Source of the DNA: a virus
Strand: one strand, 5' to 3'
Virus record (IMG/VR): IMGVR_UViG_3300021254_000002
Length of the DNA stretch: 56,298 nt
Shown here: positions 38,382 to 41,797 of the stretch, one piece after another
Layout: every line of letters begins with the position of its first letter
How positions within the stretch are numbered: the first letter of the stretch is position 1
Program-made: the position numbers and the translations under genes
The notes under the pieces: generated by a model
What the model saw: only the letters and a program-made list of their open reading frames with translations
Database searches by the model: none
What the model was told of the DNA's origin: nothing

Positions 38382-39886
38382 TTAATCTTCAAAATAATAA
38401 TTTGTGTAGCGTCCGTTATGCTGCGTCTGGATCTTGCACTCTGCGCATGGGAAGATCTTTTTTCCAGAGTTCTTTTCCTGCTCGCGTGCTTGAAGCAGAA
38501 CGTCGCGGATCTCATGCGAAGAAGTAATGAACTTTCCGCGCTGTCCTGCCTTGTCGCCAGTCTCGAACTCAAACAACACAGCACAGCGTTTCTTTTCGCT
38601 GCCAGAATCGAACTGCTGCTTTTTCGGATTCGTCTCTATGTCATCCTCGAAGTCCAAGATCGTGATCTGTGCTCCTACGATGTTAGAGATTGAGTAGAAC
38701 TTCTCATTGAAGATCCGCTTTCCGTTGTTGTCTACGTTCGGACGTGACTTGATCCCTAATTTCGAAAAACTCATGTTCTCGTTCGTTAATGATTTATACA
38801 GATGCTTTCCGTCGCCCCATTTGCACCACCCCTTGAAGGATGCGCGAAGCGCGATCGCTCGTTTCTCATTGTTCTGACTGACTGCTTTCCAGTGTCGCTT
38901 TGCGAAGCGCGTCTTGATGTTCTTGCGAAGCATGACTGACGCTCCGTTGAAGACGTAGCCGAGAAAGTTGATGCTTCTGCCGCCCTTGTTGACGTATCGC
39001 TGCCTTCTTCGTGCTGCGTGTATTCGAACGCATGCGTCTTCGGTGCTTTCCGTGCTTCTTGCCATTTCCTATTCTCGCGATGATTGCGTCATGCTTGACA
39101 AGTAGTCCGTTTTCCAGACAGATACGATCGAACTCCTTTAGGAACTTACGCGCTTCGCGCTTTGTGCGGAACAGCGAAGTCGTATCGTCGCAGTAGCGGA
39201 AGTAGTGTCTGACTCGCAGACGCTCCTTGACAGCGTGATCGATCGCGTTGATCGACACGTTAGCAAGCGGTTGACTTGTATAGCGACCTATTGGCAGTCC
39301 TTTTCCGTCTTTCATCTTCCAGTTCCTTGTCAACGTCGGAATGATAGTTCAGAACGTACTTGTCTACAAGTTCCAAGAATCGCTTGTCCTTGTATCTGCG
39401 TGACAGTTCACGCATGACAAGATCGTGACTGACGCTCTCGTAGAACTTCTTGAAGTCTGTCTTGACGAAGAAGACGTGATCGCTACTCAAACGAAGTGCT
39501 TTCTTCACTCTCTGGACTCCGAAAGTCAAGCCTTTGCCTTTGATGCAGGCACAGCTATCCGTGATCAGCGATCCAGTGATGTCTTCCTCGATGACGCGCA
39601 TGATAGCGTGATCCAAGACGTGCCACGGAAAATAGTCCGCAAGCACGATGTCACGCGTCTTGCCACAGTCAACGACGCGCTTCGTGACGCGATAGTCTGG
39701 CTTCGGGAACGTTAGCGTCAGGATCATCTTCTGCAACTCACGAAGCTTGTTCTCGCGATCTGCGTTGAACTCGCGTATGTAGAAGTTGCGTGAAGCCTTG
39801 CCGCCACGCTGACTGTCATCTGCTGCTGCCCGCAGATTATCCATGTCAGCGATCTTTTCCAGTATGTAGCCTTTACGTTTCGGCAT
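38382..39886 (-). CDS. DGR-type reverse transcriptase, readable only across three frames (two +1 frame changes), with a roughly 130-aa C-terminal extension
   Basis: Frame A (39886-39260) holds the N-terminal RT motifs. Frame B (39333-38866) holds GLPIGRYTSQPLAN and the catalytic YCDD. Frame C (39065-38382) holds INFLGYVF and the thumb region. Confidence 0.8.
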
Positions 39887-40164
39887 CGTTTTCTTCTTTT
39901 GTCAATTTATTGAATTTAATTCATTTTCTTTGCGTCTGACTTGAAAAGTTTTGCCTATTCTTTCCTATGCCCGCGTCTTTCAAATTCCGTCTGGACTTAC
40001 TAAACGCGCTTGACGGATTCGGATTCTTCCGTCTTTCCTCGCATTCTTGATCTTCCGACATCGTACTGATCTCATTCAGTACTACGCTGCAACGTCGTAC
40101 TCGAAAGTACTTTGGCAGGGTCGGGGTCTACACGATAAAATATAAGTCGTTTTAAAGTAATGTT

Positions 40165-40274
40165 CAAGGCGAGAGCCGATATTCGCATTCGCGTTCGAAA
40201 AAGCGTTATTCGAATTCACGTAGGCGAGACCGCAATTGAGACCGTTATTCGCATTGCCGCCCACCAGACAGAGC
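40165..40274 (-). repeat. DGR template repeat (TR)
   Basis: 110-nt ungapped match to 40528-40637. It encodes an AAY-rich peptide GGNANNGLNCGLAYVNSNNAFSNANANIGSRL but is not in a real gene. Confidence 0.9.
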
Positions 40275-40483
40275 CCTCATCGTGTACGACCCACTTGAAT
40301 CAGCTTCTTTCGAAGCGTCCAAGATTTCTTTGTTTCTTTTCGTCAGACATCTTCAAGTCGTTCAGAGATCGATCATTCGTTGTGCTCGCTCGCGCTCGCA
40401 AGTGCCGATCGTTTCAGAGAAACGACCGCCACCGCAAAACGCAAAACGAAAACACTGACGTTCTTTCATGACTGCTTTTGTTA

Positions 40484-41797
40484 CTACATGTTTCTTCCGT
40501 CCTTGAAGGTCAGCTTTCCGTAATAGGCAAGGCGAGAGCCGACACTCGCATTCGCGCTCGAAAAAGCGTCATTCGAAAGCACGAAGGCGAGACCGCAAAA
40601 GAGACCGTTAATCGCAGAGCCGCCCACCAGACAGAGCTGTCCAGTAGTGTTCGACCACCAAGCGTCAGCATAGTAAGAGGAAGATCCACCGCCACTTGAA
40701 TTAGCAGGAAGAAGATCGAAGTTCTCTCCGAGAAGCATCTTAGTGAAGTAGCTTCCAGATCCAGAAGTCTGACGTGTAGTCTGACGATACTCTCCCGCAG
40801 GATGCGAAGCAAGTTCTGTAGAAGAAGGCATTCTGTTGCCTTTGTAGATGAATACTTCCGATCCAGTCTGCGCAGTGTTTCCAGAGTTGCCGAAGAAGAT
40901 GCCTTGCAGCATTTCCCAACGCAATCCGTAAGGATCTTCGATACCACCGAGATTGACGTGACAAGCAGAAGTTCCGAAAGACAGTGCTACGTTGCCCCAA
41001 GTGTCGCCAAGAGCCGCTGTCTTTCCAGTCGTTTCTGTCTGTGCTCCTGCATCCCAAGTCGATCCAGTTCCGCAAACACCGTTTCCAAGCTGTGCTTGAA
41101 TGTTAGTGTTTCCGTAGTGTCCGACACCGTAGAGCCAACGCCAACGATATACGTCGTAGTTAGTGAGTCCCCAGAACGATCCGTTGTTCTGTGCGCGTGC
41201 GAAGAATGTCGAGATAGACTGATTGTTCGAAGGAACGACACCCATTCTGGAAGTCAGACAAGATGATGTTCCTGCTACTGTGCCGACGTATGCAGGGAAC
41301 GCGCCTTGACAGATATATCCGTCCGCTGTTTCCAGACAGTTCTTTGAGATCGGCATTTCAGAGAGCCAGACGTAAGGAGTTCCGTCGATCGTCTTCACAA
41401 GATAGTACAGACGCGGTGCGATGTGCATGATGTGACCAGTAGTCTGATCCAGAGTTGTTCCGTCTGCTGCTGTCACTGTTCCTGCGCTCGCGTCGCCCAT
41501 TTGAGTAGTTTTCAGCTTGCACGCTGATCCGTCGTTCTTGACGAAGTAGCGTCCGCACTTAGCTTCGTAAGCGTCACGAAGAAGCGTGTTGCCAACGACT
41601 CCCCATGCAGTGGAAGAAATCTCTTTGAGAGGGATTCCCCACGCGATCTGTTGAAGAATAGTTCCTTCCTGCTGTACGATGTTCGCAAAGTCAGAAAGCT
41701 TGACGCGTTGTGGCTTTCCGTCGATCTCTACGAGAATCGCGTCATCCTGCGTCATTGCTGTTGCATATCCAACAGCGCAAATGTCACCAGTTGCCAT
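40484..41797 (-). CDS. DGR target protein, putative receptor-binding tail protein with a C-type-lectin-like variable C-terminus (437 aa)
   Basis: Contains the VR about 40 nt before the stop codon. Located inside the tail-fibre module. Confidence 0.85.
   Translation of the reverse strand: MATGDICAVGYATAMTQDDAILVEIDGKPQRVKLSDFANIVQQEGTILQQIAWGIPLKEISSTAWGVVGNTLLRDAYEAKCGRYFVKNDGSACKLKTTQMGDASAGTVTAADGTTLDQTTGHIMHIAPRLYYLVKTIDGTPYVWLSEMPISKNCLETADGYICQGAFPAYVGTVAGTSSCLTSRMGVVPSNNQSISTFFARAQNNGSFWGLTNYDVYRWRWLYGVGHYGNTNIQAQLGNGVCGTGSTWDAGAQTETTGKTAALGDTWGNVALSFGTSACHVNLGGIEDPYGLRWEMLQGIFFGNSGNTAQTGSEVFIYKGNRMPSSTELASHPAGEYRQTTRQTSGSGSYFTKMLLGENFDLLPANSSGGGSSSYYADAWWSNTTGQLCLVGGSAINGLFCGLAFVLSNDAFSSANASVGSRLAYYGKLTFKDGRNM
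40528..40637 (-). repeat. DGR variable repeat (VR) at the 3' end of the target gene
   Basis: 12 mismatches to the TR, all at TR adenines. It encodes GGSAINGLFCGLAFVLSNDAFSSANASVGSRL. Confidence 0.9.

Follow-up and report, generated by a model that had tools for sequence, protein, structure and literature searches.

IMGVR_UViG_3300021254_000002 is a viral DNA record of 56,298 nucleotides (nt) in IMG/VR, and we refer to this whole stretch as the window. On its minus strand, among the tail genes, lies a diversity-generating retroelement (DGR) consisting of a target gene with a variable repeat (VR) close to its 3' end, a template repeat (TR), a spacer predicted to form a conserved RNA structure, and a reverse transcriptase (RT) distributed over three overlapping open reading frames (ORFs) in three different frames. 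We argue that the element is in all likelihood active and that its three-frame layout is maintained by selection, and we lean, a little beyond an even chance, toward separate translation of the three ORFs from start codons of their own. Read along the minus strand, the features of the locus are the following:

40484-41797, minus strand: target (variable protein) gene, 437 amino acids (aa), with a predicted C-terminal C-type-lectin/FGE-type fold bearing the VR
40520-40637 (core 40528-40637), minus strand: VR, a 118-nt repeat whose 12 core mismatches to the TR all fall at TR adenines
40520-40542, minus strand: candidate initiation of mutagenic homing (IMH) sequence, A-free and GC-rich (TCGGCTCTCGCCTTG), common to the TR and followed by CCTATTAC where the TR has AACATTAC (an IMH*-like end)
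40404-40430, minus strand: GC-rich hairpin with a 10-bp stem and a 3-nt loop, 54 nt past the target stop codon
40157-40274 (core 40165-40274), minus strand: TR, with 22 adenines and with ten AAY codons plus TAC and ATC
39969-40170, minus strand: conserved structured RNA (Sp-like), reaching from the TR 3' end into the TR-RT spacer, as predicted from an alignment of relatives
39260-39886, minus strand: RT ORF A, 208 aa, with the N-terminal part and RT motifs 1-3 (fingers and first catalytic Asp region)
38866-39315 (from a conserved ATG), minus strand: RT ORF B, in frame A+1, with YCDD and motif 6
38382-39065, minus strand: RT ORF C, 227 aa, in frame B+1, with motif 7, the thumb helices and a C-terminal domain
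37933-38343, minus strand: acidic 136-aa ORF (isoelectric point 4.7) after the RT, 42 % identical to the ORF in the same position of the phage LoVEphage

The repeat pair is the most telling part of the locus. An earlier note, a model's reading of the letters alone, had aligned the VR (40637-40528) with the TR (40274-40165) without gaps over 110 nt and counted 12 mismatches, all at TR adenines. Our realignment on the minus strand agrees: 12 of the 22 TR adenines differ, as against none of the 88 other positions, and there is no non-adenine mismatch anywhere inside the 110-nt core. For 12 mismatch sites placed at random on 110 nt, the probability that all would hit the 22 adenines is 1.8e-10. 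The translated peptides (ending in GGNANNGLNCGLAYVNSNNAFSNANANIGSRL for the TR and GGSAINGLFCGLAFVLSNDAFSSANASVGSRL for the VR, with nine residue changes), the richness of the TR in AAY codons and the 278-nt gap between the TR and the RT ATG were likewise as the note had given them, and the distance from the VR end to the target stop codon, put there at about 40 nt, is 41 nt. The repeat extends beyond the core to a full length of 118 nt, which brings the A-derived positions to 26; past ...CGCCTTG the TR and VR take their separate endings, and the first non-adenine mismatch (C to T) is located there. A second VR is absent from the 56-kb window, perhaps an incomplete genome, in which the next-best match to the non-A positions of the TR (44 of 92) is at chance level. 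A scan of IMG/VR for the exact pattern of a TR/VR consensus, with N at the A positions, gave zero matches, and close relatives were located via the target protein instead.

Activity was judged by comparing loci across samples, in place of mapped reads. Two of the close relatives, L071 and L076, have a TR identical to that of the window and different VRs, with 17 of 18 and 16 of 17 VR/TR mismatches, respectively, at A, so that the VR heterogeneity on which the earlier note had made its reading depend is present between samples. In a set of 16 target homologues (82-93 % identity), VR hypervariability coincides exactly with the 12 A-containing TR codons, and the scaffold residues are invariant (GGxAxxGLxCGLAxVxSxxAFSxAxAxxGSRL); VRs vary at the same codons in loci L071-L076. 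The pattern recurs in 29 LoVE-like loci, which share one identical TR and have 26 distinct VRs, with polymorphism in 23 of 27 A columns as opposed to 8 of 91 others. Identical TRs with differing VRs, together with hypervariability at the A codons, indicate that the three-frame RT is functional. Benler et al. 2021 argued likewise for the three-frame RT that they described, having shown adenine-specific variation among near-identical genomes (PMC8008677). Judged from these comparisons of sequences, the element is a genuine and, by all appearances, currently active DGR.

The target gene had been correctly delimited at 41797-40484 on the minus strand. Its 437-aa product matches phrog_5302 'tail protein' (E 4.5e-33) and is 47 % identical to the 'tail collar fiber protein' of LoVEphage. 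Pfam gave no match for the target, and the weak, below-cut-off match of the LoVE homologues to the lectin family PF21708 is missing in the window protein; a sequence search of the PDB returned nothing, and fold comparison alone found relatives. In Foldseek, the AlphaFold model of the target (pLDDT 85.5) is closest to TaqVP (5vf4; E 5e-9, probability 1.0), followed by Mtd, FGE, EgtB and TvpA, which bears out the earlier guess of a C-type-lectin fold. The VR sits, according to this model, at the C-terminus of a C-type-lectin (CLec)/FGE-fold target. The tail setting that had been proposed also holds: upstream lie the genes for the tape measure, two tail proteins and a Prophage_tail protein, and downstream there is a collagen-like fibre. 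The latter is an 842-aa tail fibre with collagen Gly-X-Y repeats (35393-37921, minus strand) just downstream of the DGR module, and the tail-fibre DNA has repeats of 9-nt periodicity at 37020-37246.

At the 3' end of the repeats, a GGCTCTCGCC block terminates both TR and VR throughout the family. The differences that follow it (AAC in one repeat, CCT in the other) are fixed between samples and not variable, and LoVE-like loci have equivalent ones. A GC-rich A-free block with fixed, differing ends fits an IMH/IMH* boundary, a function that we would assign by analogy with the phage BPP-1. Comparable GC-rich hairpins to that at 40404-40430 are found in many, though not all, relatives, at 57-165 nt after the VR, and are absent in LoVEphage proper. 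The hairpin may be a terminator or a target-recognition hairpin; we do not claim it as the target-recognition hairpin of a DGR, since its position is unconserved and LoVEphage is without it.

The spacer between TR and RT is predicted to be structured. In an alignment of 16 diverse relatives, a conserved RNA of ~200 nt starts at the TR 3' end and stops ~85 nt short of the RT ATG, and RNAalifold assigns it 19 pairs, 10 of them with compensatory changes. The TR-terminal GCC is paired in it with the GGC of an invariant CCGGGCA. Paired cells make up 98 % in this model, compared with 24-47 % in controls with slid partners, and its covariation score of 0.455 (at most 0.128 in the slid controls) was reached by none of 500 shuffles. 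No Rfam family matches the spacer RNA, and no other RNA was detected in the window with Rfam, tRNA included. The BPP-1 DGR has a spacer RNA that acts in priming and RT binding, and by this likeness the structured spacer of the window would be the priming and RT-binding element.

The RT is where the earlier note needs amending. It had treated 39886-38382 as one coding sequence, a span of 1505 nt that is not a multiple of 3 and that contains three ORFs in three frames. ORF A covers positions 25-107 of the Pfam RVT_1 profile and ends in a helix and a basic stretch (...ELEDERRKR). ORF B is open from 39333, with its ATG at 39315 and its stop at 38866; it begins MKDGKGLPIGRYTSQ, covers profile positions 117-186 and ends in a highly basic tail (KKHGKHRRRMRS...). 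ORF C, which overlaps B by 200 nt, leads from a poorly conserved head through GGRSINFLGY (motif 7) and the thumb to the C-terminal domain, and matches the RT family phrog_1423 and phrog_19665. The RVT_1 scores of the separate pieces lie below the Pfam gathering cut-off. The breaks fall directly before GKGLPIG, between RT motifs 3 and 4 (junction 1), and between motif 6 and the INFLGY of motif 7 (junction 2).

When the three ORFs are conceptually joined, RT residues 2-339 align with Brt of BPP-1 (PDB 8ub7_A, E 1.9e-18), a match that outranks group II intron, retron and Drt2 RTs. The DGR motif-4 signature (I/L/V)GxxxSQ is present as PIGRYTSQ in ORF B. This ranking of PDB matches and the motif-4 signature uphold the assignment to the DGR clade that the earlier note had implied. 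Both junctions are gaps or loops in the alignment with Brt, and the cut points are surface loops between motifs 3/4 and 6/7.

Beyond the RT core, ORF C adds a C-terminal domain of ~130 aa (38385-38774). In the model of ORF C, residues 1-42 are disordered, the thumb occupies 44-94, and the C-terminal domain is predicted with a pLDDT of ~90. Compared with PDB structures, the domain gave no significant match, and we leave its fold unnamed. In BFVD it matches RTs (324 and 493 aa) along with small phage proteins, most of them uncharacterised and a few annotated DUF669 or SSB (E 1e-2 to 1e-4). Among 1.84 billion representative proteins, only 32 clusters match the domain, and these are ORF-C-like proteins, RTs of ~480-500 aa, or ORFs of ~70-130 aa, many of them partial. 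In every homologue the C-terminal domain begins with an invariant in-frame Met, Met98 of ORF C in the window (38772-38774, minus strand), from which translation may start internally and yield the domain in free form; the domain is sometimes gene-called as a separate 131-aa ORF (P0128). Locus L098 was dropped as a case of a separately encoded C-terminal domain, as it has an extra frame change inside the thumb and is known from a single short contig.

The designation of this DGR as 'complete' in the earlier note is too strong, as no avd or other accessory gene is detectable. In a Pfam scan of ~40 ORFs of the window, none matched PF05635 (Avd) or another accessory family, and there is no room for an accessory gene between target, TR and RT. 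An accessory gene (avd or HRDC-type) is a common, though not universal, feature of DGRs, and it was not found here. What follows the RT instead is the acidic 136-aa ORF, which is without a Pfam or PHROG match and is not Avd-like. An ORF of ~130 aa stands in the same position in every relative examined, split or unsplit (L001, L071-L079), and on this positional and sequence conservation the acidic ORF appears to be a conserved partner in the module.

The three-frame layout is widespread. A relative of ORF A is encoded by 67 IMG/VR loci, both junctions being readable in 63. About 60 of these 63 show the +1/+1 offsets of the window (B relative to A, C relative to B); their A cores are 45-56 % identical to that of the window (56 % is the maximum for any IMG/VR ORF A), and A shares a frame with B in only two loci, at ~30 % identity. 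The three-frame layout is also that of five close relatives of the window's phage, with 79-99 % nt identity in the RT where measured, and it recurs in 13 Bacteroidales genomes, among them those of cultured B. acidifaciens, B. intestinalis, B. oleiciplenus and Lepagella muris. Prophages with a three-frame RT (loci L080-L092) occur in Bacteroides, Phocaeicola, Cryptobacteroides and murine Lepagella (Muribaculaceae), with ORF A at most 56 % identical to the window's. Codon variability was followed along a weighted alignment of 43 distinct RTs: third positions vary most, counted in frame A as far as junction 1 (with frame-A variability traceable to about 39300), next in frame B and finally in frame C. 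This switch from frame to frame implies that each is under purifying selection in its own segment. We conclude from these alignments that the layout is under purifying selection in about 80 related loci and that the RT is functional, not decayed. A few copies depart from the layout: L021 has A8 instead of A6, fusing B and C; P0134 has lost 1 nt and, with it, an intact GVPIG; a deletion in P0135 joins A to the C-terminal domain; and L055 and L065 are also off-pattern. These variants are defective copies or sequencing errors.

A gene that lies in three frames without a single ORF, whose pieces score below the RVT_1 cut-off and which has broken relatives (P0134, P0135, L055) might also be a decaying pseudogene with two frameshift mutations, in which case the TR/VR differences would be relics of a dead DGR. 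We regard this as very improbable, given that about 80 loci keep the same frame layout with protein identities down to 45-56 %, that third-position variability reveals purifying selection in each frame in turn, and that the window's own lineage combines differing VRs with a constant TR. Nor are the VR variants ancient alleles with diverged flanks, as the RT region of L071 is 99.4 % identical to that of the window over 1531 nt, ungapped. Still more remote is the idea that the frame changes are homopolymer errors of sequencing or assembly and that the true gene is one ORF. It would account for both shifts being +1, for the position of junction 1 of the window near an A4 run, and for the fused B and C of L021, a sequence from an old dataset; yet the same frames appear in independent assemblies from many projects and platforms and in cultured isolates, and in most lineages the junctions are not at homopolymers. 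Transcriptional slippage was ruled out for a similar reason, most lineages being without long homopolymers at the junctions.

If the RT is functional, the question becomes how it is made. At either junction, the downstream frame starts with an ATG in every one of the 43 distinct sequences, 5-8 codons before GxPIG at the first and 12-34 codons before I(D/N)FLGY at the second, and a stop codon in the downstream frame often stands 0-2 codons before this ATG. At junction 2 the codon of the upstream frame that contributes to this ATG is AAT, CAT, GAT or TAT (N/H/D/Y), always AT followed by G, compared with an NAT:NAC usage of 877:480 elsewhere. Two single-ORF relatives, P0133 (477 aa, locus L077) and P0137 (523 aa, locus L079), have AAC-G at the homologous site of junction 2 and hence no ATG. 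The upstream frames run on past the junctions as basic tails (...ERKKR and KKHRKRKR/RKRQRG) that are themselves under selection, and we also count toward separate initiation the poor conservation and predicted disorder of the ORF C head. The invariant ATGs at both junctions lead us to favour three separately initiated polypeptides, which would assemble as a split RT; from the sequences at hand we consider this slightly better than an even chance. Separate initiation predicts the N-termini MKDGKGLPIGR for B and MARSTESTEDACVR for C, the latter beginning MARST....

The chief alternative accepts that the DGR is active and holds that the RT is one ~55 kDa polypeptide made through two programmed +1 frameshifts, with the ATGs incidental. 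We see it as a real possibility, if one clearly below an even chance. It was proposed by Benler et al. 2021 for Quimbyvirus, in which the RT likewise lies in three overlapping frames (PMC8008677), and several of our own observations weigh in its favour and against separate starts. Selection on the downstream frame begins only ~5 codons (B) and ~10 or more codons (C) after the ATG, and the upstream frame is conserved until then, as a late +1 frameshift would also produce. The switch of the selected frame maps not to the ATGs but near an AAR-AGG motif, at or near which the shift would occur, Lys-tRNA re-pairing in +1 while a presumed rare AGG occupies the A site, as in the retrotransposon Ty1. 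Of 16 diverse lineages, 13 have at junction 1 either AAG-AGG, the usual form, or AAA-AGG, as in the window, and the LoVE-like lineages repeat AAG-AGG at junction 2. Successive ORFs overlap in every relative, the upstream ORF always extending past the downstream ATG by at least 35 nt; frameshifting needs such an overlap and separate initiation does not. The unsplit P0133 (42 % identity) and P0137 show that the ancestral enzyme would have been a single chain, and P0137 has CAT-GAA at junction 1, so that the ATG there could be ancestral. To our knowledge, moreover, a polymerase active site formed by two polypeptides, with the motif 3 Asp in A and YCDD in B, has no precedent among prokaryotic RTs, and any role given to the basic tails and the C-terminal domain is conjecture. 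Against frameshifting, no slippery motif is common to all lineages: in the L045 group junction 1 reads AAA-GAG-AGC, AGG is missing from junction 2 of the window and its close relatives, and the window has no slippery motif of any kind at this second junction. The AGA-GG codons for 'RG' also occur in the unsplit P0133, and the invariant ATGs would go unexplained, above all the NAT codons of junction 2 where unsplit relatives have AAC. We know of no bacterial or phage gene with two successive +1 frameshifts, and the yield would be very low. A combination of both routes, or some other mechanism of RT production, we consider improbable. We therefore keep separate initiation from the conserved ATGs as our preferred reading, and the comparative evidence makes the published 'two frameshifts' idea decidable by specific mutations and peptides.

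Going one step further, we put forward, tentatively and as slightly less than an even chance, that this RT clade is a heterotrimeric split enzyme with one active site across three chains, in which the conserved basic tails and a clade-restricted, possibly OB/SSB-like C-terminal domain replace Avd in holding the TR-spacer RNA and the cDNA. In the split RT of our preferred reading, A would provide the fingers and motifs 1-3 with its basic end, B would provide motifs 4-6, including YCDD, with its long basic tail, and C would provide motif 7, the thumb and the clade-specific C-terminal domain; the basic tails and this domain may, speculatively, supply the nucleic-acid and RT-binding role of Avd. 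The single-ORF relatives may then be secondarily 'healed' versions. If true, this would be the first naturally split prokaryotic RT and an Avd-independent route to mutagenic retrohoming, and a truly split enzyme would inform both the study of RT architecture and the engineering of DGR-based mutagenesis systems.

As a whole, the locus is very probably an active DGR of the Quimbyvirus/LoVEphage type in the tail-tip module of a temperate Bacteroidales-type phage. We expect that a transcript containing the TR and the ~200-nt structured spacer would be reverse-transcribed and that TR adenines would be copied unfaithfully, as the VR pattern indirectly shows. The complementary DNA (cDNA) would then replace the VR at the 3' end of the gene for the 437-aa tail protein, with the A-free, GC-rich block and the differing IMH and IMH* ends probably setting the 3' boundary, as in BPP-1. 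Twelve codons on the ligand-binding face of the modelled C-type-lectin/FGE fold would be randomised in this way, and receptor specificity would presumably change with them. In abundant gut Bacteroidales phages, host range depends in large part on DGRs that diversify tail proteins.

Outside the module, a tyrosine integrase (32098-33261, minus strand) and divergent helix-turn-helix regulators (29373-29663, minus strand, and 30284-30637, plus strand) indicate a temperate phage. A 1250-aa protein at 7413-11165 (minus strand) combines an SPP1 gp7-like head-morphogenesis N-terminal part with a Bxa-type ADP-ribosyltransferase (phrog_16625, E 4.7e-183), its ADP-ribosyltransferase toxin domain lying at residues 1077-1231; possibly it is an effector delivered with the capsid. 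Further genes are those for an SSB at 16670-17155 and two YopX paralogues at 20434-21346.

In comparison with BPP-1, the window shares adenine-specific TR-to-VR differences, a tail protein of CLec fold with the VR at its C-terminus, a repeat end that is GC-rich and A-free and is followed by TR- and VR-specific bases, structured RNA 3' of the TR, and an RT core collinear with Brt over its full length. It differs in that Brt is one ORF of 328 aa, whereas the window has three ORFs and a C-terminal domain of ~130 aa, and in that the hairpin of the window does not stand immediately after the IMH. Avd is present and essential in BPP-1, and none is detectable in the window. The parallel with Ty1 is mechanistic only and concerns programmed frameshifting. 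At the +1 site of this retrotransposon, CUU-AGG-C, the P-site tRNA re-pairs ahead of a rare AGG codon, and the AAR-AGG motif similarly places a codon capable of P-site re-pairing before a presumed rare AGG inside the polymerase gene of a retroelement. Ty1 is eukaryotic and shifts once, however, while in the family of the window the motif is not universal and frameshifting is hypothetical.

The single-ORF relatives P0133 and P0137 are closer. They align at 42 % and 34 % identity, respectively, over 99 % of the joined RT, C-terminal domain included, and their modules have the same order; L077, the locus of P0133, has its own TR/VR pair with 13 of 13 mismatches at A. In contrast to the RT of the window, their ORFs are continuous, with a linker of 15-30 aa at the junction 1 site and no +1-frame ATG at the junction 2 site, where P0133 also lacks the basic tail (...SPIHSNGKGRMIDFLGY). 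At junction 1, P0137 and L098 have the linker K(Y/N)C(H/D)WASD(V/E)P, which looks like LoVEphage motif-4 DNA translated in frame A (KRCSDWSIYKP). This hints, as a lead only, that the single-ORF versions were healed by a duplication of motif-4 DNA read in two frames; in self-alignment of the L079 DNA, 18 of 500 shuffles scored equally well, and L098 gave no signal.

The nearest known systems are Quimbyvirus and LoVEphage, prophages of Bacteroides and Phocaeicola; for LoVEphage there are lysogens of B. thetaiotaomicron, P. dorei and P. vulgatus (PMC12629997). LoVEphage is the only annotated phage with DNA similarity to the window, confined to the surroundings of VR and TR. Its RT lies in three frames, and methyltransferases form an island together with an RtcB tRNA ligase (PMC8525569), as Benler et al. 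describe for Quimbyvirus, and because these features are common to both we treat it as the same kind of phage as Quimbyvirus. The window shares with them the order of tail proteins, VR target, TR, structured spacer, three-frame RT, acidic ORF of ~130 aa and fibre. With LoVEphage it also shares the RT break points (+1 and +1 at the same motif boundaries), the GGCTCTCGCC end on both TR and VR, and a cassette without an annotated avd, at identities of 47 % for the target and 52 %, 44 % and 41 % for RT ORFs A, B and C. The differences are equally clear. Quimbyvirus has a second, remote VR in its defence island, which the 56 kb of the window do not; the window has AAA-AGG and not the AAG-AGG of LoVEphage at junction 1 and no such motif at junction 2; and its B/C overlap of 200 nt compares with 50-68 nt. 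Nineteen window ORFs match LoVEphage, made up of the tail-tip/DGR module (35-52 % aa identity) and a few replication or lysogeny genes. ORF matching showed no genome-wide kinship with Quimbyvirus/LoVEphage ('Quimbyviridae', defined by TerL): the terminase, portal and capsid proteins of the window are unmatched in LoVEphage, which makes the window a different, mosaic phage. The three-frame RT type has already been published, and what is new here is a divergent member in a new phage background. Its presence in a phage that is elsewhere unrelated to LoVEphage shows that the DGR cassette with the three-frame RT travels as a mobile tail-tip module.

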